A stretch of 64,000 nt of DNA from an uncultured Candidatus Saccharibacteria bacterium (GCA_964557535.1 CAZLAD010000003.1:25671-89670), one strand, 5' to 3'; numbered from the stretch's first letter, positions 4,016 through 63,954 are shown. Made by a program: numbers and translations. The notes: generated by a model not told the origin, from the letters alone.

Positions 4016-4789
4016 TTATTTTTTTAAATTTTGTAGATAACCTCCGTCAATTGGAATCACTTGGTTTTTTATTACGTCTTGATTCGTTAACCAGTAAATA
4101 ACTTCGGCGATTTCTTCTGGTTGTAGAATTTTACTTCCTGGTGAATCTTTTAAAATTTCATGAAATTTTTCACCAAAACCGTCTCGTGCAAGTTGTGTAT
4201 CTACAAGTCCCGGAGCAACACAGTTTACTATTAACTTTTCATTATTTTTACCTATATGGGCAACAGCGCTTTCTAGGTCTTTGTGAACACGTTTTTCAAG
4301 ATTGTCTTCTAATAGAAAAGTATATAACGAACTAATTGCTAGGGCGTGTGTCGCTTCGTCTTTTTGTCCTAAAACCTCCATAATTTCTACGCCACCAAGC
4401 TTTACGTTTTCGTATTCTTGCTCATATTCCAGTGTTTTATTTTGTGAAAATATGCCAGCGCAATGAATTATTTTATTGATTTTTTCTTTTTCTAATATTT
4501 TAAGTAATTCTTCTCTACCCTCTTTTGTTGAAATATCAACTTTTATAAAACGAGTATTTTCGAGCATCGAAACAGATTTTCCCTTTTCTTCATTTCTGCC
4601 AACCACAAAGACGTCGCTTTCATTTGCAAATCTTTTTGCAGTTTCTAGACCAATGCCGGAAGTTCCTCCAAGTATTAAAATTTTGTTTTTCTTATTTTCC
4701 ATTTTTGAAAAATCTAAGTTTAATAAATTTCTCAAAAGTAGGGCCGAGACTTGCTCGGCCGCACTTCTATGTGCTGCGCTCTTAACCAC
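4016..4789 (-). CDS. Short-chain dehydrogenase/reductase (SDR) family oxidoreductase
   Basis: 257 aa. N-terminal Rossmann motif 'ILILGGTSGIGLETAKRF'; length typical of the SDR family. Confidence 0.8.
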   Translation of the reverse strand: MVKSAAHRSAAEQVSALLLRNLLNLDFSKMENKKNKILILGGTSGIGLETAKRFANESDVFVVGRNEEKGKSVSMLENTRFIKVDISTKEGREELLKILEKEKINKIIHCAGIFSQNKTLEYEQEYENVKLGGVEIMEVLGQKDEATHALAISSLYTFLLEDNLEKRVHKDLESAVAHIGKNNEKLIVNCVAPGLVDTQLARDGFGEKFHEILKDSPGSKILQPEEIAEVIYWLTNQDVIKNQVIPIDGGYLQNLKK

Positions 4790-5183
4790 GAGCCACTTTT
4801 ACTCGATCATCAATGGCGTCACCGACTTTCAGGAGAACCCACAGCATGACGTACCATACGAATGGGGCAGGTACTGCCCAGATCATTCGGGAACCGAAGA
4901 CATGGTCGCCTATGGTAGTGACAGGAATCCCTTCAAGGTGACCGAAGGCAACGATGAACATGATGCCAATCCAAGCGATCGCCAGACTCGCGAGAACTGT
5001 GCTGATACCCTGCAGGCGCTGGCTTGTAATAGCAAGGCTGGCGCCCACGAGAGAGATCCCATTCAGGCATACGACCATACCGGTCGGCATTTTCCAAGAA
5101 GGATCAGTGTAGTATTCGAGACCGAAGCCGAGAAGCACAGCGGTCAACAAGGCATACAGGCAAGGGAGGGTTGTGCGAAACAT
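4782..5183 (-). CDS. Small hypothetical membrane protein (about 4 predicted TM helices), GC-rich
   Basis: Start placed at internal Met 'MFRTTLPCLYALLTAV...' (the ORF track extends it to 5417). Hydrophobic segments throughout. The local GC is higher than in the flanks. Confidence 0.4.
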   Translation of the reverse strand: MFRTTLPCLYALLTAVLLGFGLEYYTDPSWKMPTGMVVCLNGISLVGASLAITSQRLQGISTVLASLAIAWIGIMFIVAFGHLEGIPVTTIGDHVFGSRMIWAVPAPFVWYVMLWVLLKVGDAIDDRVKVARG

Positions 5184-5391
5184 GGTGAGGGGGTTGGTTA
5201 AATTTTTGTGAATGTACAGTCCACTCTTTGAAAACTCAAACTGCTTCAAGTTCTCAAAAGTGGGGGCGAAGCGTAGCCTCGCCCACTTTGGATTGGTCGT
5301 CTCGCGACGAGCTTCAGTTTCAGGGGATCCTACTCTCCCTAACCAGAGGCTAGACTGTCTGTGACTTTGGCTAGCTTTGTTTGGGTTTTTC

Positions 5392-6471
5392 CTACGAGTC
5401 GTAGTGCCATGCCGCATCGAACACTGGTACTAGGAACTGTTTGCCAGACAATCCCCTTTTCCGTGCCATGGTGACCGCCACCGCAAATCCCGCTCTTCCA
5501 GTCCGCCCGAACTCTGCCAGCACTTCATGGTGAAAGTCATCCCATTTCACAACCCATTCACTCTTGTCCGTTGGCTTAAAGCCGACGGCATTTATGAAGT
5601 TGTTGTCAACGAAATTACTTGTCACCAGCCCCACCAAATCAAGGTGGGGTATGCAAGCTTCGAGTGCAGGAAACTGAAAAATCGGATTAGCATAGGTGGT
5701 TCCGGGCAAGTCATGTCTCGCAATAACGGCCGGGTCAGCGATTCCGAAGATTCGCTGATATTTCCCAGAGGGTTCCTCAGCCGAAACTGGGAACTTTTTT
5801 CTGTAGGCGAGAGCAGACGAAGCCACTTCAAAACCTACAACCGTTATTTCGGGAAACAACAACTTGAACCCGGTCGCCATGGGAAGCGTTGTCGTGCCAT
5901 TGCCCAGGGGACAAATGACCACATCCGGCTTGATGCCGGCCTCAACAACTTCATCGACAAAGGGCCGGAACGCATCGATCGCTGCGCCGTTGATCGTCTC
6001 CCCTCTTCCGAATATATCGCCCATTGAGTGGCCAATATACCTGGTTCCGCGATTCTTCTTTTCGGCAAGAAATCTGCGGACATATTGAGGAAATCCGTTC
6101 ACGTACGCTTCGGCCGGAGTAAGAAGTAATTCTCCTCCAGCCGCTTCGATCGCGCGTTCACGAGCCTTCTCACCCCCAGCAGGAACAGCGATCTTGATTT
6201 GGTAACCAAGCGCTGTCGCTACTGCGGCTGCGGCACGTCCACCGCTCCCAGACGTGGTTTCGAGAAGCACATCACCCGGCTTGATAATGCCGAGACACTC
6301 TTTCAAGTAGATGAGCTTCAAGAACACGCGGGAGTAGTGGCACTCACCATATGGCAACTTGTAGTCGAGCTTGAAATGGTAGGTGTTACCTTCAAACTCG
6401 ATCGTTGTCACGGGAGAGTTGCGCACTTCGGTGAACATGTTCTCGTAGAGGTGTTTGCGATTCTGGTTCAT
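5392..6471 (-). CDS. Pyridoxal-phosphate-dependent enzyme, fold type II (cysteine synthase / tryptophan synthase beta superfamily)
   Basis: 359 aa. 'ETTSGSGGRAAAAVATALGYQIKIAVP' resembles the CysK-family nucleotide-binding stretch, and there is a glycine-rich 'GNGTTT' loop. GC-rich with G/C-ending codons. Confidence 0.7.
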   Translation of the reverse strand: MNQNRKHLYENMFTEVRNSPVTTIEFEGNTYHFKLDYKLPYGECHYSRVFLKLIYLKECLGIIKPGDVLLETTSGSGGRAAAAVATALGYQIKIAVPAGGEKARERAIEAAGGELLLTPAEAYVNGFPQYVRRFLAEKKNRGTRYIGHSMGDIFGRGETINGAAIDAFRPFVDEVVEAGIKPDVVICPLGNGTTTLPMATGFKLLFPEITVVGFEVASSALAYRKKFPVSAEEPSGKYQRIFGIADPAVIARHDLPGTTYANPIFQFPALEACIPHLDLVGLVTSNFVDNNFINAVGFKPTDKSEWVVKWDDFHHEVLAEFGRTGRAGFAVAVTMARKRGLSGKQFLVPVFDAAWHYDS

Positions 6472-6651
6472 GGTGGTTATGGTTTATGTGTTGGGCCCAA
6501 TCACACAAACCGACAACCTTTTCTGAAACTGCATTTTTCGAAGATCAAATTTCTAGACATATCATAACAGGTTTTGTCAAACTTGTCAATTTATATTTTA
6601 TATTTTGCAATAAAATCGCCGTAAAGACCTTATTTTATAAGTATAAAATAC

Positions 6652-6683
6652 TGTTGACAAACACTTTACAACTTTGCTAAAAT
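6652..6683 (+). promoter_or_regulatory. Sigma70-like promoter (TTGACA-18-TAAAAT) ending 6 nt before the TrmB start codon; likely a leaderless mRNA
   Basis: Hexamers read directly from the sequence. A direct repeat TTGTCAAAC-TTGTCAA lies upstream at 6570-6586. Confidence 0.4.
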
Positions 6684-6689
6684 TTCAGA

Positions 6690-7445
6690 ATGGAAGAGAA
6701 GTTAAAACAACTAGGTCTGTCGGATAAAGAGATAAAGGTTTATCTGTGTGTTCTAGAAAACACCAAAATCACCCCCGCCCTCATAGCCCGCAAAACAGGC
6801 GTTACTCGCCCAACTGCTTATGGAGTGGGTAAATCTTTGGTAGAAAAGGGTTTTATTGAGGCTGACGAGCTAAGCCCGACTTTATACTTCGTTGCCCTAC
6901 CTCCGGAAAATATCGAGAAAATTATCAAAAAGGAAAAATTAGAAATTGAAGAAAAACTAAAAAACATACAGTCTCTAGTTTCTGAGCTTTCTTTGGTTCC
7001 AAAATCTAAAAACTACTCAATCCCAAAGGTTAAATTTATCGATGAAACACGCTTCGAAGAATTTATGTACGAAAGAGCGCCTATTTGGAATAAATCAGGT
7101 CTTGCGGGAGACGCGACGTGGTGGGGTTTCCAAGATCACAGCTTGTTAGAACAATATCCTAATTGGTTTAAATGGTATTTTGAATTTTCTGCAGGGAAAA
7201 TAAAATCAAACCTTATTACAAACGACGAAGAAAAACAAAAAATGGGAGAAGTTTTGCATGAAAAATATGAAAGGGTTGCAAAATATTGGAACGGTGATGT
7301 CGGCGTGACTTATTCTGTCTTGGGAGATTTTGTTTTTATAGCAAACACTCAATCAAAACCACACTATATTGTAGAAATAAACGACGCGGTTATCGCAGAA
7401 AATATGAGAAATATTTTCAAAGGTTTTTGGAAAATGCTTCCTTAA
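6690..7445 (+). CDS. TrmB-family transcriptional regulator (N-terminal wHTH)
   Basis: N-terminus 'LGLSDKEIKVYLCVLENTKITPALIARKTGVTRPTAYGVGKSLVEKGFI' matches the TrmB HTH architecture. Confidence 0.7.
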   Translation: MEEKLKQLGLSDKEIKVYLCVLENTKITPALIARKTGVTRPTAYGVGKSLVEKGFIEADELSPTLYFVALPPENIEKIIKKEKLEIEEKLKNIQSLVSELSLVPKSKNYSIPKVKFIDETRFEEFMYERAPIWNKSGLAGDATWWGFQDHSLLEQYPNWFKWYFEFSAGKIKSNLITNDEEKQKMGEVLHEKYERVAKYWNGDVGVTYSVLGDFVFIANTQSKPHYIVEINDAVIAENMRNIFKGFWKMLP

Positions 7446-7702
7446 AAAATATCTTTAATTCCTTTTTCCGGGAAGGCCTCTCGAAGTTTTTTGAGAATAC
7501 TCTCTTTATGAAGGTTTATTTCTGTTTTGGTGTACGGATCGGTTTTTAGATGTATATTTTGGTTTCGGTAAGAAATTTCTTCTTTTTTTAGAAAGGTTTT
7601 TGTTTCAGTAAAAACTATTTCAATAATTTTTTCTTTAAACCTTTCTTCACCCAAAAGCTTGTCTTTGAACGCTTCGAGAAAATTTCCAAGACTAAGTGTC
7701 AT
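7442..7702 (-). CDS. Small DUF721-like protein downstream of dnaN
   Basis: 86 aa, immediately downstream of dnaN (3-nt gap). Position and size are typical of DUF721/DciA-like proteins. Sequence similarity is weak. Confidence 0.4.
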   Translation of the reverse strand: MTLSLGNFLEAFKDKLLGEERFKEKIIEIVFTETKTFLKKEEISYRNQNIHLKTDPYTKTEINLHKESILKKLREAFPEKGIKDIF

Positions 7703-7704
7703 TT

Positions 7705-8805
7705 TTATCTATTCATCGGCATTATTAGATAGAGAAAGCTTTTATCGCCATTACCTTTTATAACCATTGGACGATTTACTTCGTTCATTTCGAGGACAAC
7801 CGAATCTTCATTGATCGACTGGAAGCAATCTAAAATATATTTATGATTTAGGTTCATCTCTATCGCCTCACCCTCAAAAGCGCCGTCGACAAGTGTTTTG
7901 TTCTCGCCAACATCTTTGTTGAGGGCATAGACTTCAAGTTTTTTCGCTTTTGGATCGACTTTTATTTTTATCTGATTAAATTTATCCGAAAAAATATTTG
8001 CCAAACGAATTGATTCAATAAAATCTTTTTTTAGAAGGATTGCGCGAGTTTTGTATTCCTTTGGCACGATTTGACGATAGTCCGGAAACGATCCATTTAT
8101 AAGTCTAGAGGTTAAATAAAATCCTTGTAAAACAAAAGAAATTTGATTTTTATTATAATAAATTTTCATTTCACCTTTTACGTCCGACAATAATTTGATT
8201 ATCTCTAAAATATTTTTGAATGGAATAATCAAACCTTCTACGTCAGTTGGTTTTTTGGTCTTTATACTTTTTTCTGCTAAACGAAAAGAGTCTGTGGAAA
8301 CGAAAAACAGTTGGTTTTCGTTTGAATAAATATAAACACTTGCAATCTCTGGTTTTATGTCACTGACCGCCGAACTATAAAAAACGGCTTTTATTCCCTC
8401 TATAAATTTTTCAATCTCTATTTCAAAAGAATTTCCTTCTACTGTTGGAATAATCGGAAAATCTTCTGAGGAAATACTTTTTATCGTTACTGATGTTTTT
8501 TTATTGTTCAGGAAAAGGTTTTCTTCGATTTTTTCCATTTTTACAACTTTTTCGGAAGCACCTAAATTCATCAAGGTATTACTTATAACCTCTCCTGTAA
8601 CTACAACCTCTCCTTCTTTTTCTATTTTGGCAGGCAATTCAATCTCAAGTCCAAGAGAAAGGTTGGTTGAACGAATTTTTAAACTATTTCCAGAGGCAAT
8701 AAACAAGATAGACTTTAAACTCTCTAGACTAGAAGTCTTTCCCACGATTTTATCCGCTTTACTTACAGCCTCTCTTAGTTTATCTGTTGAACATTCTATC
8801 TTCAT
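7705..8805 (-). CDS. dnaN: DNA polymerase III beta subunit (sliding clamp)
   Basis: 366 aa with a three-domain clamp pattern, directly downstream of dnaA in the conserved dnaA-dnaN arrangement. Confidence 0.9.
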   Translation of the reverse strand: MKIECSTDKLREAVSKADKIVGKTSSLESLKSILFIASGNSLKIRSTNLSLGLEIELPAKIEKEGEVVVTGEVISNTLMNLGASEKVVKMEKIEENLFLNNKKTSVTIKSISSEDFPIIPTVEGNSFEIEIEKFIEGIKAVFYSSAVSDIKPEIASVYIYSNENQLFFVSTDSFRLAEKSIKTKKPTDVEGLIIPFKNILEIIKLLSDVKGEMKIYYNKNQISFVLQGFYLTSRLINGSFPDYRQIVPKEYKTRAILLKKDFIESIRLANIFSDKFNQIKIKVDPKAKKLEVYALNKDVGENKTLVDGAFEGEAIEMNLNHKYILDCFQSINEDSVVLEMNEVNRPMVIKGNGDKSFLYLIMPMNR

Positions 8806-19875: not shown

Positions 19876-20003
19876 AAAGCGAAGGCCCCGATTGCTCAGG
19901 GCCTTCCACGTTCGGGCTGAATAGCCTTTCCGCGCCCATTCCACCATGACTGTGCGCTGGCGCTTATTTCATACAGAACGTTTTCCAAGAAGTTCAGTGG
20001 TCT

Positions 20004-20150
20004 TCACGTGCGGACTACTGCCCGCCTCTCGATCTCATCGATACCCCAGGTCAGTAGGGTGATCAACATGACAAGAGTTGCTCTTATGGCCAGCCAGTCG
20101 ACTATCGTCAACCGACCAAACCCTTCAATCAGTACGTTGATGATCCACAT
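20004..20150 (-). CDS. Possible 48-aa hydrophobic peptide in a GC-rich islet
   Basis: ATG..TGA ORF 'MWIINVLIEGFGRLTIVDWLAIRATLVMLITLLTWGIDEIERRAVVRT', below the ORF-track size cut-off. The codons end in G/C, like the other GC-rich islets. Confidence 0.2.
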   Translation of the reverse strand: MWIINVLIEGFGRLTIVDWLAIRATLVMLITLLTWGIDEIERRAVVRT

Positions 20151-20729: not shown

Positions 20730-21545
20730 ATGAAGAAGAAGTTGGTAATTTCGTGCGTGATGACAGTTTTTTGGCTTCACGCTTTTGGACAGATGAGTTC
20801 TGGTACGATCATTGATCTATTGCCAGATCGAAGGGATTCACTGGAAGACGTTCGCGAATTCTACTACCACGTCAGCGTTTTCGGCATGATACCTGTCGAC
20901 GAGCGCAAGAACGATTTCCAGAAAAACCGTTTGGGCGACAAACCCGAAAGGCCAAATTTCTGGCGAGGTGAAGTTCAGATGGGACTTTTCCTGCCGGGCA
21001 AGAAGAATCGCATGCTGGAACCAAATGTTTGTGTTCGCATTGACGGGATGCCGACGCACTACCTGTCGTCTTCGATTGGATTTGGAATTGTTTGTCGGCC
21101 ACTCGACTTTGGTGTCGGTGTGCGCTTCGGTCAGTACTATCGACAGGTCGCGAGCGACGGGAATTTCATAACGCGTCGAAGCAAGCAGTTCGATAATTAC
21201 CCGATGCGAAGTATTTACTTCGAGATGGCAAATCGGGAGGCGTCGTTTTTCTTCGAGGTGGCCATCGAGAAAAAGAAGACGACGCTATCTACCAGAATTG
21301 CTGGGCGGTTCGGCAACATTCTGTCGCTTGGACGAGACGAAAGCCTTCTGCGAAGTTTGGAGCTCGTGCTTGAGTCGCGCGAATTTTCTGGATCTGGCGT
21401 AGGACTTTCAGTCAAGCCGTTGTCGCTGGTTCGTCTACAAGTCCTCTGGGTTGCACCGACAAAGCTCGACAGGAACGAACAGTCTCGCCTCGGTAATGTG
21501 GTTTCTCACGGAGTGCTAGCAAGCCTCTCGGTGTGTGTGAATTAG
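20730..21545 (+). CDS. Secreted hypothetical protein (signal peptide), GC-rich
   Basis: 271 aa. N-terminal 'MKKKLVISCVMTVFWLHAFG'. No recognizable domain. About 52% GC with G/C-ending codons. Confidence 0.45.
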   Translation: MKKKLVISCVMTVFWLHAFGQMSSGTIIDLLPDRRDSLEDVREFYYHVSVFGMIPVDERKNDFQKNRLGDKPERPNFWRGEVQMGLFLPGKKNRMLEPNVCVRIDGMPTHYLSSSIGFGIVCRPLDFGVGVRFGQYYRQVASDGNFITRRSKQFDNYPMRSIYFEMANREASFFFEVAIEKKKTTLSTRIAGRFGNILSLGRDESLLRSLELVLESREFSGSGVGLSVKPLSLVRLQVLWVAPTKLDRNEQSRLGNVVSHGVLASLSVCVN

Positions 21546-22497: not shown

Positions 22498-22626
22498 TTT
22501 ATGGATTATACAAGAAAAATTATTGCAAAATAAAGGTTTTAATGGCTTGACAATAGTAACTATATATGCTACTATTCAAATCGACAATCCTGTCACTCAA
22601 CCAGTTCCACCAAAACCAAAACCGTC

Positions 22627-23064
22627 ATGAAAAACACTGTGAGCAATTCCCAGACGACGCACATGCCGTACACCCTCTTCGTCACCCAATTGCGGGGTGT
22701 CAAGAATGCCATGTTCCTGAAGAAGGATGAGAAGATCACCACAGACCGGCTCTTCAAGTTCTTCTGTGACCGCATCGTCGGGACGATGAAGAAGGAGAAT
22801 GCCCAGAAGTTGCGCAACAGCTTCGCTGAGCCTCTCACGCGCACGGAGGCTGATGCGCAGTTCGTGAAGATGTGCATGAAAGAGGCCGTCCGGCGGTTCA
22901 TGCGTGAAGAGCTGAGGCCCGAAAAGCACCAAGCCTTCCTCCGCGATCTGGCAGAATGCCTGATGACGAGCTCCCACAGCAAGAACGTGGAGGTGATCAT
23001 GTTCGCGGACGAACTGAGGGGTCTACTCTCCGAGCGGTTCCCCGGCAGAAAGCTGGCCGCCTGA
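22627..23064 (+). CDS. Hypothetical protein, GC-rich (about 56%), with distinct codon usage
   Basis: 145 aa, no recognizable domain. Shares the upstream motif CACCAAAACCGTCAT with the gene at 23888. A terminator hairpin AGCCCTGACCTTGTCGGGGCTttgttgtttt follows at 23086-23116. Confidence 0.4.
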   Translation: MKNTVSNSQTTHMPYTLFVTQLRGVKNAMFLKKDEKITTDRLFKFFCDRIVGTMKKENAQKLRNSFAEPLTRTEADAQFVKMCMKEAVRRFMREELRPEKHQAFLRDLAECLMTSSHSKNVEVIMFADELRGLLSERFPGRKLAA

Positions 23065-23119
23065 CGTACAACCGCGCAATGCGCGAACCGAGCCCTGACC
23101 TTGTCGGGGCTTTGTTGTT

Positions 23120-23887: not shown

Positions 23888-24238
23888 ATGAACAAAACAG
23901 TGCATTCAGGAGGATACGCCACGATTGTGGTAAACAAATCAGGCGACGAAACTCGTCGGTTGATGCAAGAAGCAGGCTTGCTCGAGCGCATACGTCAACA
24001 GGGAATCGATTGCTATATCCGCGGAGATGGTGGCCTCTCTGATATGACAGCTGCTGAGCATCTGCATGTGCTACTCACAGGCAAACAGTTGGTCATTAAG
24101 CCGGGTCGTGTTCTGTGCCTGTTCTTACGTCGCTCTCATCTGAAGAACGGCGTGGAAGAAAAGCCTATCGAGACTTTTGCGGGAGAACTCGGCAAGCTGT
24201 GCGGGGTTCCCGAAGAAGTCGAAGAAGTCGCGAGGTGA
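23888..24238 (+). CDS. Hypothetical protein, GC-rich, putative paralog-context partner of 22627
   Basis: 116 aa. Same upstream motif (ACCACCAAAACCGTCATcagcgATG). G/C-ending codons. Confidence 0.35.
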   Translation: MNKTVHSGGYATIVVNKSGDETRRLMQEAGLLERIRQQGIDCYIRGDGGLSDMTAAEHLHVLLTGKQLVIKPGRVLCLFLRRSHLKNGVEEKPIETFAGELGKLCGVPEEVEEVAR

Positions 24239-24320
24239 TACATTGTGTTCAAGTGGGAGTAAAGGGTCGCCACGGTGCGACCTTTCCCTTTTTTAAAAAA
24301 CTGCTAATATCTTTCCATGA

Positions 24321-31658: not shown

Positions 31659-32066
31659 ATGAAGTGCGAAGATGCTAGAAAAGTCTGGTCTCACAAAGGT
31701 GGGCCCATAGAAGGTGTCAAAGAAGCGTTTCCACTTGCGTGGGAGCGTCTGGATGGTCTAGCCAAAGCATTCTCTTTGGATGGCCAGTGCCCCTTCAACG
31801 AATCTTTACAGGGGTTATTGTCAGGATCTGTGCATACGAAGTTCTACGCCGATCATGCCGATGACAAAGACCCTGTTGCTGAAGAAGTGCATGGCATCGT
31901 GGGTGACGCGGCGATGTCGCGAGAGCTGTCCCGCCATTTCACGGCCGTGTACGGACAACCGATGACGTTCGGCAACGTGTGTTGCAGCTCTTGCCTGGTC
32001 TCACATCCTTCAATCGAAGATGAAGAGGTCAGGCGCATCCAGATCGCAGCTATCCGCATCGGATGA
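31659..32066 (+). CDS. Hypothetical Cys-rich protein, GC-rich
   Basis: 135 aa, no recognizable domain, G/C-ending codons. The terminator CGAAAGCCAGCTgagaAGCTGGCTTTCC follows. Confidence 0.4.
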   Translation: MKCEDARKVWSHKGGPIEGVKEAFPLAWERLDGLAKAFSLDGQCPFNESLQGLLSGSVHTKFYADHADDKDPVAEEVHGIVGDAAMSRELSRHFTAVYGQPMTFGNVCCSSCLVSHPSIEDEEVRRIQIAAIRIG

Positions 32067-32156
32067 GCATTACGAGTAACAACGAAAGCCAGCTGAGAAG
32101 CTGGCTTTCCCTTATAATCTTTACTTAATTTTAGGAAATGTATAATAGCAAGTAAT

Positions 32157-38320: not shown

Positions 38321-38374
38321 GAAAAGCAAGGCCCCGCTTGTCGCGGGGCCTTGGCGCTCCAGGTGCTGTCCGGA

Positions 38375-38545
38375 TCAGTTGATCTTTCTTCGATCGCTGG
38401 GCGTGTATTTCTCCAGATGTCCGGCGCATTTTTCACACACGCCACACATGTCTGGGTCATCTCCTTGTATGTGCATACAGGAGACGCATTGCCAGGTTGT
38501 TACAACGTCCGTGTTCTTTGTGGTCTGGGTGTCGGTTTCGGGCAT
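38375..38545 (-). CDS. Possible 56-aa zinc-ribbon protein (two CxxC pairs), GC-rich
   Basis: 'MPETDTQTTKNTDVVTTWQCVSCMHIQGDDPDMCGVCEKCAGHLEKYTPSDRRKIN'. Below the ORF-track size cut-off. G/C-ending codons. Confidence 0.35.
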   Translation of the reverse strand: MPETDTQTTKNTDVVTTWQCVSCMHIQGDDPDMCGVCEKCAGHLEKYTPSDRRKIN

Positions 38546-54944: not shown

Positions 54945-54955
54945 AAGGATGCTAC

Positions 54956-55433: not shown

Positions 55434-55585
55434 ATGCGGTATGCTATCATGGTATTTATAAATATGCAATCCCGTTAGGGATTTGTTGTTAAGATTAGTC
55501 AAAAAGCATAAAAACACAATGGTCGTAAATTACTTACAAAATAATAAGCCGGATATGCAAACAAAAGTTTGTTATTTCTAATGAA

Positions 55586-56215: not shown

Positions 56216-56228
56216 CTCATCCCCCAAG

Positions 56229-56310
56229 CAAAACAAAACACAAAATTTCATTTACGAGGACCTGGTGCGTAGACACGATTCGACAGGAAATGAAATTTGT
56301 GTTTTGTGGA
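56229..56310 (+). ncRNA. Copy 3 of the conserved 80-nt hairpin element, directly after the M50 gene
   Basis: Stem CAAAACACAAAATTTCATTT / AAATGAAATTTGTGTTTTG. Loop ACGAGGACCTGGTGCGTAGACACGATTCGACAGG. Confidence 0.5.
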
Positions 56311-56406
56311 GCGCCCCTTTATCCACAATAAATGTCTTTTTAAAACCTTTTTCTAGACCCGGGTGATATAATTGTGGCGTATTAACAATTCACTCATTTA
56401 AATATT

Positions 56407-56691
56407 ATGGAACCAAAATCTCATAAGAGCAGAAACATATTGATAATTATCTTAATTATCGTCGTTGTCATCTTTTTGATAGCAAAAAAGAAAGCCCCAT
56501 CAGACCAATTAACTGAGGAGCAAAAACAAGCCATCATCGAGGAATTGAACAGAAACTACGTTCCGTCAAACTTAACCGAAGAAGATAAAAACAACATCTT
56601 AATCGAGGTGAAATCCCAATCTTCTAGCACGAACAATATATCAGAAGAACAAAAAACCGGTATTTTAAATCAAGTAAAGAAAAACAATTAA
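56407..56691 (+). CDS. Small membrane-anchored low-complexity protein
   Basis: 94 aa, TM 'ILIIILIIVVVIFLIA'. Lies 4 nt upstream of the next gene. Confidence 0.35.
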   Translation: MEPKSHKSRNILIIILIIVVVIFLIAKKKAPSDQLTEEQKQAIIEELNRNYVPSNLTEEDKNNILIEVKSQSSSTNNISEEQKTGILNQVKKNN

Positions 56692-56694
56692 TCT

Positions 56695-58434
56695 ATGACG
56701 TCGGTCGCCAAAATAAAAACAACAAAAAAATTTTTCGCAGTCTTTTTCTTGGTTGTTGCGGGTATTTTGGTTGGTTTTAATTTAGCGTCATCCCAAGAAC
56801 CAAGCCCTTTTGAGCTGGGCGATGTTTACGGTAACGCTTGGATGGGAACTCATATTGAAAATATGGGCATGAGCGAAGGCGGGGGAGGCTGGCTTCGTTT
56901 TAATTGTTTGCCAGATAACTGCGACAGTACTATTGGTGAATGGGGTGTCAAAATTGACGCTGATCAAAACAGTCCAGGTTACGGTGAGTTTGCTGGCTAT
57001 GCATGGAGTTCAAACTATGGTTGGTTTAGCTTAAATCCTGGCGATGTCGCAACTTGTTGGATGCAAAATCCAGACGTTACTTCGACCAGCGTGGCCAAAG
57101 CCCTCCTTGGTCAAAGTAGCGACGTCGAGGTGCCGGTTGTCGGTTGGGGTAAATTTCTAGCTGGTGACGATGTCTATGATGATGGTTGGGACGGGTGTGT
57201 CGCCTTTGGTGGTTTCAATAATTCAGTTCGATTAAACAGAGAAGACGGCGCCCTAAAAGGTTGGGCGTGGGGAGGAGAAGTTGTCGGTTGGGTAAGTTTC
57301 CAAAATCCAGAATGTCCGTTTTGTGATACTACAGTTGTTCTAGACAGAATCGTCGGTTGTATGGATCCAAATGCAACCAATTATAATCCTTTGGCCACAG
57401 TCCCTGGCAGATGCAGTTATGGGCCACCAGTTGTGGGTTGTATGGATCCAAACGCCACAAACTATAACCCACTTGCCACCGTCCCGGGTAGATGTAGCTA
57501 TGGTCCTCCGGTTCGTGGTTGTACCGACTCAACAGCTACAAACTACAACCCATTGGCAACAATAGACGATGGAAGTTGTACATATGGTCCGGTAGATCCA
57601 GATGGTGATCCTCGCCCAACACTTAATCTTCAGGCTACTCCAAATACTCTATACGTTGGAAGCTTAAATTACACGACGGGGCTAACATGGACATCGGATC
57701 AGCCGTCAGAACTTTCTGGTTGTGTCGGAAGTTTGACCGGTACAAACGTTTTGGATCTAGGCAATCAGACTAACTGGGATGGTCCACGAAGTTCTCCAAA
57801 CATTACTACTCCATTTGACGTAAACCTCGCACCGTATGCATCGACGGCTGTCTCTGGAAATCAATATACCTTTAGATTAACGTGTAATTTGTCTGGCGGA
57901 GGAATAATATTCGACACTGCCGTGGTTAACATGATCGATCAAATAAATCCAACCGAACCACCTCTTATCTCACTTCAAATTATCTATCCGAACATCGATA
58001 GTAATTTGGCTACAGAAAATATTGCGCCTTGGAATCCAATAACGCTGTCCGGAGGTATGGATCCAGTAACACTTAGGTGGCAGGCCCTAAACGTTGTTGA
58101 TGGATCATGTGTTGGTACTTCCAAAGTATTTAATACGCCGACATCTACTGGCGATGGCCCGAACTTGGCTCCAAGTACATATCCAGGACAGGCGGCTTGG
58201 GATAGTTTGGCACTATTGCTTGACGGTGGAGGTTATGGACAACTTAACCTAAATGTCACAAATCCAAACTATATTAAAAACACTAAATTCCAGATTAGTT
58301 GCGAGCCGTTAAATAATCCAGGAACTACGATCAGGGCACAAGTTTGTCTGGGTGTCGAGGGTCAACAGTTCCCACAATCTCAGTGTCAAGCAGGAAATAG
58401 CATAAATCGTCCACCAGGTTACAAAGAAATTTAA
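56695..58434 (+). CDS. Secreted protein with three tandem copies of the 26-aa Cys-motif (GCMDPNATNYNPLATVPGRCSYGPPV x2, GCTDSTATNYNPLATIDDGSCTYGP)
   Basis: 579 aa with an N-terminal TM/signal. The tandem 78-nt DNA repeats at about 57355-57590 differ at many synonymous sites although the amino acids are identical. A palindromic terminator CATAGCGCGTAG-aaaatt-CTACGCGCTATG follows at 58458-58487. Confidence 0.6.
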   Translation: MTSVAKIKTTKKFFAVFFLVVAGILVGFNLASSQEPSPFELGDVYGNAWMGTHIENMGMSEGGGGWLRFNCLPDNCDSTIGEWGVKIDADQNSPGYGEFAGYAWSSNYGWFSLNPGDVATCWMQNPDVTSTSVAKALLGQSSDVEVPVVGWGKFLAGDDVYDDGWDGCVAFGGFNNSVRLNREDGALKGWAWGGEVVGWVSFQNPECPFCDTTVVLDRIVGCMDPNATNYNPLATVPGRCSYGPPVVGCMDPNATNYNPLATVPGRCSYGPPVRGCTDSTATNYNPLATIDDGSCTYGPVDPDGDPRPTLNLQATPNTLYVGSLNYTTGLTWTSDQPSELSGCVGSLTGTNVLDLGNQTNWDGPRSSPNITTPFDVNLAPYASTAVSGNQYTFRLTCNLSGGGIIFDTAVVNMIDQINPTEPPLISLQIIYPNIDSNLATENIAPWNPITLSGGMDPVTLRWQALNVVDGSCVGTSKVFNTPTSTGDGPNLAPSTYPGQAAWDSLALLLDGGGYGQLNLNVTNPNYIKNTKFQISCEPLNNPGTTIRAQVCLGVEGQQFPQSQCQAGNSINRPPGYKEI

Positions 58435-58604
58435 GTACGAGTACGTAGTACATAGCGCGTAGAAAATTCTACGCGCTATGTCATTTCTACGAACTACGCA
58501 TTACGCTCCAATCAAGGTTTTCCACATTACTGTTTCGCTTCGTCAAATTAAAACTTGCGAAGGTGATATTATATAAAGAGCTTTATAAATTTATTATCAA
58601 AACT

Positions 58605-61600
58605 ATGCGTAATTTATTATCAAAACTTTTTCTATCTTTTTTTATTCTTTTGTTTGCAACTCCGGCTCAACTTTTGGCCCAAGAGAATACATGGACTGCT
58701 CCAGCCGGCAACGCTCCTGGATTTAACGTCGCGGCGCCTGTAAACATCGGTCCTCTCACTCAAACCAAGAAAGGTCCACTTATAATCGAAAACCGATTTT
58801 TGGGTGGTGCGGTAACGAATCCGTCTAACAACCAAACGATTAGTGCACTCGAAACAATGGCTGGGTCAACAACGACTCGAGGAGCCACGATCTTTGATGC
58901 GTATCCGGCTGGATCGTCGATGGAATCTTCGCCAGCTTTTTTCTTGTCTTTTGTGAGGTCTATATTTGCCAATCACGTTCAGATTGGTGATCAGTCACCT
59001 AGTATGGGCGGTAGAAATTTGAAACTTTTTGGTAATTTCCAATACATCCCTACAAACGAAGAAGATGGTACTCCGGCAAACAATCAGCCAATGCCGGGCT
59101 ATGCTCTAACAGCGCTAGATACTCAGGGAAACACCGGCTGGCGACCAGCTCTTCCAAACGGTGGGAATGATGGCGATACCCTTATATGGGATGTAGATTG
59201 TCAGTGTTGGGTTGTTGGACCAGTAACAAACACAAACGGCGGTACTCTTCCATCAGGTGCACAGGGTCAGACTCTGTGGTACAGCGCGCCGAACGTTTTG
59301 CAAGCAACAAATCAGATAAGACATGGAATTGGCCCTGATGGCACCACCACAACGACTGTTTTAGAAAATGAAGACATAACCATAGGTGCAGCTGGAGGAG
59401 CTATGGGTGCTGGTATAACTAGAATTATGACTCCAAATACTGGTATCTTAGGTTACGGAACCATCGATATTGGTGTCAATACAGACGGGCAAACAAATAT
59501 CAATTCACAACAAGTAACATTTACTGAACCAGCGGGTAACAATTTCTTCCAGACAGTTGACGTTAAGTCTAAATATGTAAATTTTACAGCTCCACCATCG
59601 GGTGCGGATAGCCAGGTTGTTGATTTTGCTTCGAAGACGGTGAATTTTGACGACGGCGCTGGTCAGATAGCTGACTATCAAACAGTCAATGTAAAATCCG
59701 GCAACACAAATTTCGTTGGTCCTACTGTTAGTTTCCAGGACGCCAACGGTCAGCCTTCAGATTATCAAACCGTCAATGTAAAATCTGGCAATGTTAATTT
59801 TGCTGCACAAGATGATGGAGGAAATCAGACCGTTACTTTTGAGTCAGATACTGTTAAGTTTAGAAATATCGACATGAATCCTGGCCAGGGAAGAATCCCT
59901 TATGCCATGGATGATGAAGGACGTTTTGTGTGGAATAAAAACTTTGTTTATAACCAGCAAGACGTTCCAGGAGTCGGGCTTGTAAACGAACTTCGATTGA
60001 AAAACGATCAAGTCGGCCAAGGTCAAACAGCTACTCCAAGCGTTCTTACCAATGAAGGATTGACTCTACTTCAAGATGACGTGTTTGTGGATGGCGGAGA
60101 TTTGGCAGTGACAGATCAAGGAGATCTCTATCTCGAGGGCTTAGCACAAGCTTCAGTATTAGAGATTAGTCAAAATCAGGTAAGACAACTTTGTTACGTA
60201 GAGAATACCAAAAAAATAGTGAGTTGCAATACAGTTGTCCCGGGTAGCGGCACTAATCCATCCTTGGAACCAGTGTACGAGACAGATTACGAAGTTTTCA
60301 GAACAGCTGAGAATAACACAGGACCTCTCAGTAGTTATACATTCAACTCTAACCAAGCCGTAGATCTTAAATTCTGTGGTGGAGGCGGCGGTGGAGGCGG
60401 AGGCGGAGGTGGTATTCTTGGAAAAGGAGGCGGCGGTGGAGGCGGCGGTGGAGCCGGGCCTTGTCAGATTTTAGAGGGTTTTCCTGTTAGCGTTGGAGAT
60501 GTTTTGAGTTGGAATATTGGTGATGGTGGGGAGGGGGGTCTTGGAGCTAAAAAACAAGAGGGTCAACCAAATATTAATACATTAGCTTCTGATGGTTTAA
60601 ATGGCTTCCCCACAAGTGTGTTTATTGACTACGCAAACGATTCTTTGGGCCCTATTCAAATCGGTCAAACTCAACAGGGTGGTTTTGGTGGTAAAAAGGG
60701 TCAAGGATTTAATAACCCGAATAGTTGTGTTTATAATGCTGCTGTTACTGGATCGGCTGGTGGAAAAGGTGGTAATGATTCTTTAAGTGGGTATGAAGGT
60801 AATGAAGATTGTGCTGATTTGATACTGGTTATTCCAACATGGCACGACGGTCAAACAGGTTGTCTTGGAAATACTGGTGGCGGAATTCAAAATTGTTCTG
60901 TAAACAGTGACCTTGGTGGTTATGGTGGTGACGGAGAAAATCCAGTAGGATCAGTTTTGCCGCCCATATCTGGAACAGCAAATAGTGCCGGAGGTAATCC
61001 TGGTATAGATGATTATGCAGAAACGATGACGTCAGACCATTTAGCTAATAGAACTGGTGGTCCTGGTTATGCTGGTTCGCCTGGTAATGGAGGAGGAGGT
61101 GGAGGAGGAGGATTCGGTAGTGCAGAATACACCAACGTTGAAGCTGGTGTTATAACCGGCGTATCTCCGCTCGTGTCGTGGACAAAATGGCCTGGTGGTG
61201 GTAATGGTGGAAAGGGTGGAAGTGGATATGTTCAAGTTACCGGAATCTTAAATAATACATCTGGTACAAATGCCGTAGAATTTACAATACCTTCGACCAA
61301 CACTCCTTTTGCCGTGAACGCTATTCCTGTGGCAGTTAATACTGTAACTATCGAGGTGTGGGGCGCATCCGGAGGAGGAGGAGGAGTAAAAACTGGACTC
61401 TTTGCTGATAGAATTGCTGGTGGTGGAGGAGCGGGCGGTTATATAAAGGTTGAGGATGTTCTAAAAACTCAACTTGGAACAGGAAACATGTTGATAAAAG
61501 TTGGCAGTGCTGGTTCTGCCGGAAATTCGTCTGGTGATTCTAGCGAAGTTACAAATGGCGGTAATGGCTCTGATTCTTGGATTAAAAAATCAGATGGTAC

Positions 61601-61898
61601 CGTTATTGTGTCAGCTTCTGGTGGGTCGGGTGGACCAAAAGATATAACTAGTAGCACAGACTCAATTTATCCAAACGGTGGGCTTGGTGGAGGATTTTCA
61701 ACACCTTCAGTTGCTGGAACAGTAACATCTTCACAGGGTCTGAGTGGATTGGGCGGTAGCAATGGCGGCGGCGGAGGAACCAACTCTATTGGAGGAAATA
61801 TTAATAACGGAGGATCAGGAGCTTCAACAAATACTTGGGCTGGCTTGAGTAACCAGTCGACAGGAGGTCAAAACGGAAAAGTCAGAATCTCTTGGTAA
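58605..61898 (+). CDS. Large (about 1100 aa) secreted glycine-rich protein with poly-Gly tracts
   Basis: Signal peptide 'MRNLLSKLFLSFFILLFATPAQLLAQEN'. Runs 'GGGGGGGGGGGILGKGGGGGGGGGAGP', 'GNGGGGGGGGFGS', 'SGGGGGVK', 'GGGGAGGYIKV'. No catalytic motifs recognized. Confidence 0.6.
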   Translation: MRNLLSKLFLSFFILLFATPAQLLAQENTWTAPAGNAPGFNVAAPVNIGPLTQTKKGPLIIENRFLGGAVTNPSNNQTISALETMAGSTTTRGATIFDAYPAGSSMESSPAFFLSFVRSIFANHVQIGDQSPSMGGRNLKLFGNFQYIPTNEEDGTPANNQPMPGYALTALDTQGNTGWRPALPNGGNDGDTLIWDVDCQCWVVGPVTNTNGGTLPSGAQGQTLWYSAPNVLQATNQIRHGIGPDGTTTTTVLENEDITIGAAGGAMGAGITRIMTPNTGILGYGTIDIGVNTDGQTNINSQQVTFTEPAGNNFFQTVDVKSKYVNFTAPPSGADSQVVDFASKTVNFDDGAGQIADYQTVNVKSGNTNFVGPTVSFQDANGQPSDYQTVNVKSGNVNFAAQDDGGNQTVTFESDTVKFRNIDMNPGQGRIPYAMDDEGRFVWNKNFVYNQQDVPGVGLVNELRLKNDQVGQGQTATPSVLTNEGLTLLQDDVFVDGGDLAVTDQGDLYLEGLAQASVLEISQNQVRQLCYVENTKKIVSCNTVVPGSGTNPSLEPVYETDYEVFRTAENNTGPLSSYTFNSNQAVDLKFCGGGGGGGGGGGGILGKGGGGGGGGGAGPCQILEGFPVSVGDVLSWNIGDGGEGGLGAKKQEGQPNINTLASDGLNGFPTSVFIDYANDSLGPIQIGQTQQGGFGGKKGQGFNNPNSCVYNAAVTGSAGGKGGNDSLSGYEGNEDCADLILVIPTWHDGQTGCLGNTGGGIQNCSVNSDLGGYGGDGENPVGSVLPPISGTANSAGGNPGIDDYAETMTSDHLANRTGGPGYAGSPGNGGGGGGGGFGSAEYTNVEAGVITGVSPLVSWTKWPGGGNGGKGGSGYVQVTGILNNTSGTNAVEFTIPSTNTPFAVNAIPVAVNTVTIEVWGASGGGGGVKTGLFADRIAGGGGAGGYIKVEDVLKTQLGTGNMLIKVGSAGSAGNSSGDSSEVTNGGNGSDSWIKKSDGTVIVSASGGSGGPKDITSSTDSIYPNGGLGGGFSTPSVAGTVTSSQGLSGLGGSNGGGGGTNSIGGNINNGGSGASTNTWAGLSNQSTGGQNGKVRISW

Positions 61899-62000
61899 AT
61901 TAAAAAGAGAAAACAAAAACGCCGAAAGGCGTTTTTGTTTTTGGTGTATTTGTTCCGAATGGTATAATAAAAACAAGTTTTATTCGTTAATTTGTTTATT

Positions 62001-62903
62001 ATGAAATTAAGAAAACATCTAAATCTAAAAAGTGAAAAAGTTCTGCTTGTTTTGTTCGCGCTTTTGTTTGCCACGACATCTCTTCAGACTCTAGCTATTG
62101 TTAAAAGCTACAAAAACAACAATATAAATACCAATCAGTCCGCTCAGGTTATTGGCAAATATCCATCTACTTCAAGTACACTTCCTTACAATAATTGTGT
62201 TACGGTACTTGATCACAAATACAATCAGATATTTTCAAGCCCTCTTGAGCCAGTCAATCTAAATCCAAATGGTAATACAAATGACACCGATTATACCTAC
62301 GAAGTTTACTTCAATGTTAAAAACAACTGTGACAGGCCGATTAGCATCATAGATCCTTCGAGTATGTCTTCGCCATACAAAGGAAATCCCGGATTTTATA
62401 CTATCAATTCCTTCGCGCTCGAATTAAATAGCCTACCTTCTCCAACGGACATCTCTCTTGCTCCGCCAGCTTCTAGTTTTGTCGATGCGGCGCGCGAGGA
62501 GGGAGATTGTGTAAATTGTGCTCCGACAGATTTGGCTTTCAGGGTGTCGCCGGCTGGTACACTCAATTATCAGGGCAATGATACCAATTTGCGAATGTAC
62601 AACATCCCAGCTGGTCAGACCAGAATTGTGAGTTTCGTTTTGCAAATAGGGCGACCTTATCCTACTTTCGGCATTAGTCATTTCCTTAGAGCAAAATTAA
62701 AATCATTCAAATGGACTTATACGAATTCTTACATCAGTGGTGGAATTGTCTCCGCGGACGAGATATTTACAACAACTCTATCGGCTAGCCAGCAACAATC
62801 TTTTGCGACAGATTTCGCAAATATCTATCAAGATGGTAATCCAAATTGCTCGAGTGGCGGAACTTTAGGTATCAATAGTGACGGTGTCCCAGTTTGTCAG
62901 TAA
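62001..62903 (+). CDS. Secreted hypothetical protein
   Basis: About 300 aa. Signal 'MKLRKHLNLKSEKVLLVLFALLFATTSLQTLA'. A bidirectional terminator GAGAAAGCGCGGCCggatGGCCGCGCTTTCTC follows. Confidence 0.5.
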   Translation: MKLRKHLNLKSEKVLLVLFALLFATTSLQTLAIVKSYKNNNINTNQSAQVIGKYPSTSSTLPYNNCVTVLDHKYNQIFSSPLEPVNLNPNGNTNDTDYTYEVYFNVKNNCDRPISIIDPSSMSSPYKGNPGFYTINSFALELNSLPSPTDISLAPPASSFVDAAREEGDCVNCAPTDLAFRVSPAGTLNYQGNDTNLRMYNIPAGQTRIVSFVLQIGRPYPTFGISHFLRAKLKSFKWTYTNSYISGGIVSADEIFTTTLSASQQQSFATDFANIYQDGNPNCSSGGTLGINSDGVPVCQ

Positions 62904-62967
62904 GACTAAAAATAGAAAACGAGAAAGCGCGGCCGGATGGCCGCGCTTTCTCATTCAGCGAATATGA

Positions 62968-63954
62968 CTAATCGCGAATGAGTTTGGTCGTCCTTGTCCC
63001 TTTTTCGGACTCGACGACAAGATGGTACAACCCTTTGGACTGAGTGGAGACTAGCTCCGTTAGCCCTGTCTCGGTAACTTGACCAGATGCGACTAGACGC
63101 CCTGCGGCATCCAAGAGGCGATATTCCTCTTTGGCGTTTGCCTGGAAGAATAGTCTGTCGCCGTCCCATGGGTTTGGGTAAACGATCAGGGCAGGTTGAT
63201 TCGTTGGTTCCACATGTGTGGAGATACTTTGGACAGTCTGGCAGACTTCCTCAGTACCGAGGTTGATCACGTGAGGATCAAATAGTGGCGTGTCGCCAGT
63301 GTCCATCCATGCGAGAGTCGCTTGGGCACACACTTCGATCGCTGGTCCGTCGTAAACCCATGCATGTTCGTGGACAATGTCCGTCCACGAATTATGGAGT
63401 TCTGCAACGAAAGTCTCAAGAACCTCACCCTCGCCATCAACGATCTCGACGGTTTGGAGAAGTTCCTGTTCCGCGCAACGCCCGACCAATTCGGCCGGAA
63501 GTCCCCAGAAGGGACCAGTTGTTACTCGAAGTCGGAACTCCGAAGTACTACCGGAAATATTCTCAATCGTAACCTCCGGAGTCTCTTCCCAGACGTGAAT
63601 CGAGTTTATTCCGATTGGTTCACAAGTCTCGACGTTGCCGTCGAAAATCCCGATCACCACTTGGTGCTCTTGTAGGAGCGTCGTCACGACCTCGTTGTAT
63701 TCCACCATGAAGATTCCTCCTCCGGTGGGTACGGATAGGGTGTGATGGGGGCTACCGTCAAGGTAGCACGCCAAAGTCCTCGGGCCGGAAGTCTCGACTT
63801 CCACCCGCACGGTGATGTTGCCCGGCTTGCTCGAAAACCAAGCCAAGGATTGCCCGTTGTCGCAATGACACGGGCTTAGCGCTATCTGATCTTGCGCCTT
63901 TGCCAAGACAGGCAAAAGCAGAAGGGTTAAAACGACAAGGAGCGGTTGTTTCAT
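62968..63954 (-). CDS. Secreted protein with a Bacteroidetes-type type IX secretion (T9SS / Por) C-terminal sorting domain; GC-rich (about 55%)
   Basis: Signal 'MKQPLLVVLTLLLLPVLAKAQ'. The C-terminal 'LIVYPNPWDGDRLFF...YRLLDAAGRLVASGQV...KGLYHLVVESEKGTRTTKLIRD' fits the T9SS C-terminal domain pattern (YPNP...GR.V......GxY.L.V.....K.I). Its GC content and codon bias differ strongly from the rest of the window. Confidence 0.6.
   Translation of the reverse strand: MKQPLLVVLTLLLLPVLAKAQDQIALSPCHCDNGQSLAWFSSKPGNITVRVEVETSGPRTLACYLDGSPHHTLSVPTGGGIFMVEYNEVVTTLLQEHQVVIGIFDGNVETCEPIGINSIHVWEETPEVTIENISGSTSEFRLRVTTGPFWGLPAELVGRCAEQELLQTVEIVDGEGEVLETFVAELHNSWTDIVHEHAWVYDGPAIEVCAQATLAWMDTGDTPLFDPHVINLGTEEVCQTVQSISTHVEPTNQPALIVYPNPWDGDRLFFQANAKEEYRLLDAAGRLVASGQVTETGLTELVSTQSKGLYHLVVESEKGTRTTKLIRD

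Follow-up and report, generated by a model that had tools for sequence, protein, structure and literature searches.

GC-rich islets in a 64-kb chromosomal region of an uncultured Candidatus Saccharibacteria bacterium as candidate horizontally exchanged accessory genes

Within a stretch of 64,000 nucleotides from an uncultured Candidatus Saccharibacteria bacterium (GCA_964557535.1 CAZLAD010000003.1:25671-89670, the whole of which is referred to here as the window), a reading made from the sequence alone had noticed eight short GC-rich islets that carry small genes in an otherwise AT-rich region. The question that the locus raises is whether these islets are real features of the chromosome and, if so, where their genes have come from. 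The answer we lean towards, with slightly better than even confidence, treats the islets as accessory genes that have entered horizontally or have been repeatedly replaced, mainly from a pool of related Patescibacteria and likely by uptake of DNA and homologous recombination. The islets and their open reading frames (ORFs) are as follows, with GC content and GC content at third codon positions (GC3) where available:

4782..5417, minus strand: islet 1a, small multi-pass membrane protein, start probably Met79 (5183) giving ~133 amino acids, no Pfam match; GC 0.519, GC3 0.57-0.59
5392..6471, minus strand: islet 1b, fold-type II pyridoxal phosphate (PLP) enzyme (PALP), PF00291 at 76 bits against a cutoff of 35; GC 0.523, GC3 0.578
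20004..20150, minus strand: islet 2, 48-aa peptide with a single membrane pass, immediately downstream of DAGK; GC3 0.667
20730..21545, plus strand: islet 3, secreted protein with a signal peptide and a predicted 12-stranded outer-membrane-type β-barrel; GC 0.504, GC3 0.574
22627..23064, plus strand: islet 4, 145-aa helical protein, the compositional extreme of the window; GC 0.566, GC3 0.815
23888..24238, plus strand: islet 5, 116-aa protein adjoining tRNA-Leu (24321-24403); GC 0.519, GC3 0.521
31659..32066, plus strand: islet 6, 135-aa Cys-rich protein; GC 0.532, GC3 0.559
38375..38545, minus strand: islet 7, 56-aa CxxC...CxxC zinc-ribbon-like protein, antisense to its neighbours, no Pfam match; GC3 0.607
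62968..63984, minus strand: islet 8, 338-aa secreted protein with a type IX secretion system (T9SS) type A C-terminal sorting domain (TIGR04183, PF18962); GC 0.529, GC3 0.578

All eight segments are GC-rich where the sequence-only reading had placed them, with ORFs of 50-57% GC and a GC3 of 0.52-0.82, against a backbone GC3 of 0.386 (40 ORFs) and an overall GC content of 42.7% (0.427) for the window. Intervals of 300 bp with at least 50% GC make up 9.0% of those observed and 0.8% of those in a first-order Markov null, with the observed maximum of 0.617 lying well above the null mean maximum of 0.530. Ten segments peak at 0.53 GC or more, the eight islets and two that had not been listed, which are a stretch inside RNase Y (13886-14384) and the tRNA cluster (15594-16348). 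From backbone to islets third-position C/(C+T) rises from 0.39 to 0.59 and G/(G+A) from 0.33 to 0.57, the codons CTG, CGG, GGG and CCC go from scarce to frequent, Arg, His and Cys are raised at the protein level with Asn, Tyr, Ile and Lys lowered, and the relative synonymous codon usage (RSCU) of the pooled islets correlates with that of the window's own long backbone ORFs at -0.10. Both C- and G-ending codons are therefore enriched as had been suggested, although strongly so only in islet 4. It is apparent that the heterogeneity is real and far beyond chance, yet it is a continuum, as GC3 varies continuously with PIF1, ZIP and HAD reaching ~0.50-0.51, and outliers are also found on the AT-rich side (SDR 0.233, DnaN 0.286).

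The islets might be explained as assembly chimeras or contamination, or else as GC-rich structured RNA genes that do not code for protein. Nothing beyond the compositional contrast itself speaks for this and we find it scarcely credible. Assemblies made independently (ENA ERZ4208449 and Logan SRR12487045, DRR685533 and DRR685535) contain the same junctions for islets 2-5 and 8, so that chimerism, a concern of the sequence-only reading, does not apply to these islets. Islet 8 together with both AT-rich flanks is identical in the ENA assembly and in two Logan assemblies of other samples, and another Logan contig and the ENA strain again contain islets 2-5. Structured RNA genes were rejected on an Rfam search over the window, which returned six tRNAs only, both at gathering thresholds and at E<=1, with none of its families matched inside an islet. 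The coding sequence is constrained in islets 1b, 3 and 5, and the products of islets 2 and 4 have homologues. The explanation is already refuted for islets 1b-5 and 8.

The relatives compared with the window are contigs designated L063, L082, L085, L088, L089, L091, L093, L095, L097-L099, L119 and L120. The strain alignments cover islets 2-5 and 8, with islets 1, 6 and 7 lying outside the aligned stretches, and the covered islets are collinear with the conspecific strain at 96.9-99.6% nucleotide identity. Because they are present in a conspecific strain, and because islets 2-4 have orthologues in the same slots of sister species, islets 2-5 and 8 appear to be established residents and not recent arrivals. 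Conspecific divergence is a mosaic across 10545-31543 compared with L095, where CCA (93.6%), xth (94.7%) and HU (94.8%) lie beside stretches of 100% identity, a pattern that suggests homologous recombination in backbone genes. The 53-64 kb region is 99.6% identical when 52955-64000 is compared with L082. On that same contig, ~8.5 kb beyond the end of the window, a PQQ-like β-propeller gene (L082 1-1468) has a GC content of 0.52 and a GC3 of 0.575, and the islets therefore extend further along the chromosome.

The evidence that carries the horizontal origin comes from islet 1, where a membrane protein and a PLP enzyme had been proposed at 4782-6471 and where a multi-pass membrane ORF and a PF00291 match are indeed found. 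A TrmB regulator (6690-7445) is transcribed divergently from PALP, and the two are paired in every context read (L089, L091, L093, L119, L120). In the syntenic sister genomes L119 and L120 the PALP protein is 86% identical to that of the window, and at conserved degenerate residues 60% of the codons are identical where 24-26% are expected (p 3e-21 for L119 and 6e-20 for L120), with a synonymous divergence (dS) of 0.73 against L119. TrmB, DnaA, DnaN, PBP1 and RNase Y are saturated in the same comparisons, with 20-32% identical codons. As 60% of PALP codons are identical while the flanking genes are saturated, the PALP ancestor shared with L119 and L120 is much younger than the ancestor of the chromosomes, with a breakpoint between PALP and TrmB, and by its synonymous sites PALP is direct evidence of horizontal allele replacement within the phylum. 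The genome of L119 has 49.8% GC, a backbone GC3 of 0.56-0.74 and a PALP GC3 of 0.54, so the composition of PALP is native there, which points to a GC-richer Patescibacterium as the donor and to transfer that would have run towards the window. The GC3 of PALP equals the background in distant relatives, being 0.30 in L091 and L093 and 0.57 in L089.

Around PALP, the counterpart of islet 1a in L120 is truncated to 55 amino acids at the same position, with 38% identity over the aligned N-terminal stretch. PALP itself scores at best 52.6 bits against the CysK and CysM equivalog models, whose cutoff is 394, and is placed in the general PALP superfamily only. The SDR gene beside islet 1 (4016-4702, minus strand), the AT-rich outlier already mentioned, has a GC3 of 0.234 in L120 and of 0.305 in the GC-rich L089. 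In L089 a TrmB-PALP-SDR module (5737-8529) occupies the slot between DAGK and xth, which in the window is that of islet 3; the slot holds different modules and is therefore an insertion hot spot in the clade.

A second replacement is observed outside the window. In L097, L098 and L099, which are small-genome, Patescibacteria-like contigs with a backbone GC3 of 0.2-0.3, a homologue of the islet 3 barrel lies immediately downstream of a 335-345-aa protein with a T9SS domain. Both members of the pair are GC-rich in L097 (GC3 0.67 and 0.50) and the L099 barrel has a GC3 of 0.356. To the left of the pair L097 and L099 share 96.8% nucleotide identity, with DnaE, RNase HII and TruB 99-100% identical in amino acids, but within it the T9SS-domain proteins are 45% and the barrels 40% identical, and only the sorting domain itself is conserved. 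This is a case of wholesale allele replacement at a hypervariable locus, between strains that are otherwise almost identical.

From these cases we infer that the process seen at PALP may extend to islets 2-8. Each islet would be a transcription unit of its own, with a promoter-like site and an intrinsic terminator, set between conserved housekeeping genes. The source would be mainly the gene pool shared by related Patescibacteria, whose genomes range over ~38-52% GC, such that an allele from a GC-richer lineage would appear as a GC-rich islet in the window and, conversely, an AT-rich SDR gene could be retained in the GC-rich sister genome L089; exchange among lineages that differ in GC would therefore account for that gene as well. 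The most likely route of entry would be uptake of DNA and then homologous recombination with the conserved genes on either side, and uptake by transformation is suggested by the presence of ComEC (52604-54097) in the window. The proposal that the islets were acquired from a higher-GC donor holds up in part, with the difference in composition and codon usage and the exchange of PALP with GC-richer relatives in its favour, but islet 3 looks vertical. The accompanying suggestion of a host or neighbour as donor is not supported, as no such donor was found and every homologue with a readable context lies in Patescibacteria or in a Patescibacteria-like contig. The distribution among close relatives is patchy, islets 5-8 having no homologue in the fetched loci outside the species and islets 2-4 being present only in the nearest sister species (islet 4 also at a different slot in L063), and an excess similarity to another lineage is found for PALP and not for islet 3 compared with L085. 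The favoured reading agrees with a survey of 125 Patescibacteria genomes, in which 83% of the detected transfers were intra-Patescibacteria and most were not recent (PMC12455944).

Several observations weigh against a horizontal origin of the islets as a class. Between conspecific strains the islets diverge no more than the backbone, which is itself patchy (93.6-100%), no donor allele was found for islets 5-8, and the RSCU similarity of islets to GC-rich sister genomes merely follows GC3, which makes RSCU uninformative for assigning a donor. Members of the islet 4 family from four genomes are GC-rich irrespective of background. Islet 3 compared with L085 retains 41% identical codons where the backbone retains 40-44%, and because this residue equals that of the backbone islet 3 has co-diverged with it and is no recent arrival. 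Its GC3 is still 0.56-0.62 in three genomes, and polarised third-position changes number 17 from AT to GC against 9 from GC to AT, with 85 against 107 in the backbone (Fisher p=0.058, a small and marginal test). The GC excess of islet 3 shows no sign of decay toward the background, a feature that the sequence-only reading had not foreseen, and acquisition followed by amelioration is not an obvious fit; GC-rich alleles might have converted the gene time and again, or a local process might favour G and C.

This last thought leads to the alternative that the GC excess is maintained in place, by GC-biased gene conversion or by selection on mRNA or codons at fast-evolving loci, and carries no donor signature. 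It would account for the islet 3 and 4 families being GC-rich in every genome examined whilst backbone GC3 ranges over 0.21-0.59, for the co-divergence of islet 3 with at least as many AT-to-GC as GC-to-AT changes, and for the raised GC at first and second codon positions with accelerated protein evolution (islet 4 19-27% identical, backbone ~70-92%). Yet PALP adopts the background composition in L091 and L093, the L099 barrel has come down to a GC3 of 0.356, a comparison of conspecific strains does not mark the islets as hot spots of recombination, and the polarisation test is small and marginal as said. Nor is there a phylum-wide rule that orphan ORFs are GC-richer, which was rejected as the mean GC3 difference over 59 Patescibacteria loci is 0.000. 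Maintenance in place is decidedly unlikely on balance.

The islets around DAGK and xth show how the slots behave among relatives. Backbone gene order is kept in the sister genomes, with amino-acid identities to the window of 70-92% (mostly >80%) in L085 and 71-90% in L088, and the islet slots there are empty or hold unrelated or strongly diverged GC-rich ORFs. The ORFs in the slots of islets 3 and 4 have a GC3 of 0.56-0.82 in every genome compared, against ~0.30-0.55 for the backbone. Islet 2, which like the zinc-ribbon ORF of islet 7 lies on the minus strand, has a 44-aa homologue (EGFGRLT..DW..LLTWGI) at the same position in L085, and L089 has a 50-aa ORF there. The plus-strand product of islet 4 is homologous to L063 11228-11689 (E 9e-11), a copy that sits at another slot, and through it, by transitive BLASTP, to L088 5136-5570 and L085 9778-10218, with 19-33% identity within the family; behind xth in L085 and L088 the identity is only 19-24%. 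Antisense ORFs of 126 and 135 amino acids overlap islet 4 (22597-22977, minus strand) and the public gene call on an identical Logan contig picked the 126-aa one; it is the plus-strand ORF, not the antisense, that has homologues and GC3 periodicity. Islet 5 differs within the species by 7 synonymous and 3 nonsynonymous changes, and its slot in L085 and L088 holds unrelated GC-rich ORFs. Islets 2-4 are older residents, kept in matching slots of the sister species, and although they change fast they stay GC-rich. The islet 6 protein is identical in 4 contigs, the ENA strain among them. There is no family match for islets 4, 5 and 6 and no Pfam match for islets 1a and 7.

Islets 3 and 8 raise a question of their own, as Patescibacteria are generally considered to be without an outer membrane. 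In the AlphaFold2 model islet 3 has 12 long strands (pLDDT 85.8, pTM 0.79), and in a Foldseek search of the PDB all 50 of the best matches listed are β-barrel proteins, nearly all from outer membranes (OmpF, OMPLA, intimin β-domain, OmpG), with probability ~1 and TM-scores of 0.3-0.5. The protein is confidently predicted to consist of a signal peptide and a closed 12-stranded outer-membrane-type β-barrel. Orthologues at the DAGK-xth slot are 72% identical in L085 and 46% in L088, and with a ratio of nonsynonymous to synonymous divergence (dN/dS) of ~0.1, and with 9 synonymous changes to a single nonsynonymous one among conspecifics, the barrel is under purifying selection. The family is small, its profile finding 34 cluster representatives only among 1.84 billion proteins, all of ~265 amino acids. 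No NCBIfam match to PorP/SprF was obtained for islet 3, and 33 family members have no Pfam match at E<=1.

For islet 8 a T9SS-domain protein at 62968-63954 had been proposed; the domain is confirmed and the end of the ORF moves to 63984. Residues 268-336 of the 338 match TIGR04183 at 37.9 bits (cutoff 23) and PF18962 at 28.6 (cutoff 27), and the N-terminus (MKQPLLVVLTLLLLPVLAKA, then QD) is signal-peptide-like by inspection only. Outside this domain nothing related to it turned up among 5.8 billion proteins, searches of PDB sequences by islet 8 and by the islet 3 profile gave no matches, and the single-sequence AlphaFold2 model of islet 8 (pLDDT 47.5) is unusable. In three other assemblies islet 8 is likewise a single-gene islet between AT-rich genes. 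Genes for T9SS machinery or an outer membrane are absent from the 64-kb window and from 10 kb beyond it.

It could be proposed that islets 3 and 8 at least derive from a diderm host or neighbour, Bacteroidota-like for example, that they keep its GC content and envelope logic, and that they were later passed among Patescibacteria. The T9SS type A domain above curated cutoffs, the predicted 12-stranded outer-membrane barrel fold and the adjacency of the two gene types in L097, L098 and L099 are in keeping with this, and Bacteroidota are among the more frequent non-Patescibacteria donors (PMC12455944). However, islet 8 is without relatives and islet 3 has its 34 representatives only in the large protein sets just given, all five of the five readable contexts (L085, L088, L097, L098, L099) are small-genome and Patescibacteria-like, and no sequence match to PorP/SprF or to Pfam outer-membrane families was found. 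A glutamine after the signal-peptide cleavage site was rejected as a marker of a Bacteroidetes donor, as AT-rich native surface proteins have it too and it does not discriminate. A diderm donor, supported by no homologue, is plausible only as a remote origin of islets 3 and 8, and the proposal is unlikely on the whole.

A bolder idea is that a Patescibacteria clade presumed to have no outer membrane carries a hypervariable module of T9SS-domain protein and barrel, under purifying selection and used on a diderm host, with its GC-richness actively maintained. If this were true the module might insert a barrel into the host outer membrane or exploit the host T9SS. In the window islets 3 and 8 lie 42 kb apart, no T9SS-domain neighbour is seen in L085 or L088, and a two-gene module would follow here from co-occurrence and from adjacency elsewhere. 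We regard the idea as a long shot.

The favoured reading, in which accessory genes are exchanged among related Patescibacteria, is also supported by how the islets are laid out. They are autonomous transcription units set between conserved housekeeping genes, often antisense to their neighbours and with terminators of their own. Strong hairpin terminators had been described as typical and are found 3' of seven of the eight islets, and promoter-like sites do lie upstream of several:

4742..4760, minus strand: intrinsic-terminator-like hairpin 3' of the islet 1 operon, 7 pairs (6 G-C), then a T-run
6561..6589, minus strand: promoter-like site upstream of PALP, TTGACA-17-TATGAT, 11/12 matches, extended TG
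19881..19906, minus strand: hairpin terminator common to CCA (plus strand) and the 48-aa ORF (minus strand), 11 pairs (7 G-C)
22547..22575, plus strand: promoter-like site upstream of islet 4, TTGACA-17-TACTAT with TG, 10/12 matches
23090..23112, plus strand: terminator 3' of islet 4, 10 pairs (6 G-C)
24262..24285, plus strand: terminator 3' of islet 5, 9 pairs
32084..32109, no strand assigned: hairpin 3' of islet 6, 11 pairs
38327..38353, minus strand: terminator 3' of islet 7, bidirectional-capable and also behind orf145, 11 pairs (9 G-C)
62917..62956, minus strand: terminator 3' of islet 8, 18 pairs (10 G-C)

At the islet 1 terminator the GC content steps from 0.33 to 0.54. A TAG-rich repeat of 27-34 nucleotides (TAGCTTCTAGTGACTAGCTTTTAGCTT) is present in 3 copies where 0 are expected by chance (3940-3973, 22466-22499 and 38290-38323, plus strand), and it adjoins islets 4 and 7, the sequence-only reading having placed it beside two islets. 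Every one of its three frames contains a TAG; one copy directly adjoins the start codon of xth, and the other two run across the stop codon of a plus-strand gene.

These features might suggest that the islets are integron-like or other site-specific mobile cassettes of one family, given small ORFs mostly of unknown function, each with a 3' hairpin, and a TAG-rich repeat near two of them. But no sequence is shared among the hairpins, their T-tails are those of ordinary terminators, comparable ones lie behind housekeeping genes, and the islets are dispersed over 59 kb and not arrayed. No integrase or transposase was found among the scanned window ORFs and no direct repeats flank the islets; no attC-like repeats or shared ends were found at them, a search for which no dedicated attC model was run. 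The islet proteins are unrelated to one another. Beyond this species the TAG-rich repeat occurs as one copy only, in L063, and it was rejected as a general islet border. The single cassette family that had been offered as an alternative is thus very improbable. A phage or defence origin was likewise rejected, PALP being the only islet match in PHROGs, PADLOC giving nothing significant for the islets, three scans of IMG/VR finding no relatives, and the fold matches in BFVD being generic outer-membrane barrels.

The setting of the islets adds some observations in their own right. The window is the region close to the replication origin (oriC) of a Paceibacteria-type Patescibacterium chromosome, a placement made because of its gene content and its exonuclease III relatives. 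The genes include DnaA, DnaN, a small YidC, RNase Y, HU, the CCA-adding enzyme, PBP1, ThrRS and ComEC, together with giant fn3/β-helix surface proteins and six tRNAs, and in a protein scan of genomes with exonuclease III the nearest metagenome-assembled genomes (MAGs) are labelled Paceibacterota, Yonathbacteria, Nomurabacteria or 'Saccharibacteria', the closest at 77-86% identity. A 2650-aa fn3/β-helix protein has an 81-nucleotide module (copy 41014-41088) that encodes GCMDPNATNYNP..., found in tandem in a 579-aa protein (57352-57513 and 57511-57585). The tRNA region at 15585-16053, which matches the listed islets in GC-richness, has tRNA-Gly(TCC) and tRNA-Pro each followed by a copy of its own 3' end (15789-15806; 16024-16053, 30/30 nucleotides), and a 91-bp unit behind tRNA-Pro is absent from the conspecific ENA strain (L095); the arrangement looks like a polymorphic footprint of integration or excision. 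Beside tRNA-Gly(GCC) and tRNA-Arg(TCG) there is a 105-nucleotide direct repeat with 80% identity (17780-17884 and 18143-18247). Sister genomes (L119 18320-18679; L085 10825-11505) have a bAvd gene, a marker of diversity-generating retroelements, and one of them also has a faint LAGLIDADG-like ORF at the position of the window's methyltransferase.

Compositional islets in a Patescibacteria MAG can therefore be real and reproducible features of the chromosome and not errors of binning or assembly, and they mark accessory genes that move between related lineages. The synonymous-site test at PALP provides a clean, datable allele replacement inside a conserved neighbourhood. As a class the islets are a further example of a known phenomenon, ordinary horizontal gene flow. 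Two features are unusual and only in part explained here: an outer-membrane-type barrel under purifying selection and a T9SS-domain protein in a presumed monoderm, and several fast-evolving families that stay GC-rich irrespective of genome background. Should the envelope of the host be the target of the barrel and the T9SS-domain protein, the two would be candidates for determinants of host interaction in uncultured episymbionts.

Among known systems, the genomic islands and horizontal transfers of groundwater Patescibacteria resemble the islets in their atypical composition, in transfers that are mostly intra-Patescibacteria and old, and in an accessory or hypothetical cargo (PMC12455944). 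They differ in that each unit in the window comprises only one or two genes (0.15-1.7 kb), has no mobility genes and lies among housekeeping genes close to oriC, and in that one case here was demonstrated by synonymous-site similarity and not by a detection tool. Islet 1b resembles the cysteine synthase/cystathionine β-synthase family in matching PF00291 and, weakly, the CysK and CysM models, but it falls far below the equivalog cutoffs and belongs to its own Patescibacteria family of ~85 clusters that is always paired with TrmB. GC-biased gene conversion, which Lassalle et al. reportedly described in bacteria in 2015, would resemble the islets in raising GC3 in both C- and G-ending codons and in accelerated protein change, but there is no sign that the islets recombine more than the backbone, and between strains it is the backbone that looks mosaic.

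Flexible or hypervariable islands, such as glycotype and surface-antigen loci, exchange their content by homologous recombination in the conserved sequences that flank them. Such islands are far larger than the islets, which are stable between the two conspecific strains compared, but the islets share with them conserved slots with divergent or unrelated content, as in the L097 and L099 alleles of 40-45% identity between flanks of 97-100%, and many islet products are surface or secreted proteins. The T9SS has been described as limited to Bacteroidetes (PMC11611037). Islet 8 differs from Bacteroidota T9SS type A cargo in being borne by a Patescibacterium, in a window without visible T9SS machinery, but is like it in its C-terminal domain, which exceeds the cutoff and has YPNP, GxY and K-x-x-K-like motifs; its N-terminus reads like a signal peptide. 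In Bacteroidota, partner barrels of the PorP/SprF type are encoded next to T9SS cargo, and these partners go with type B domains, not type A. The islet 3 barrel differs in having no sequence match to them; in L097-L099, though not in the window, a T9SS-domain protein is followed by a predicted outer-membrane-type barrel, an arrangement reminiscent of such pairs.

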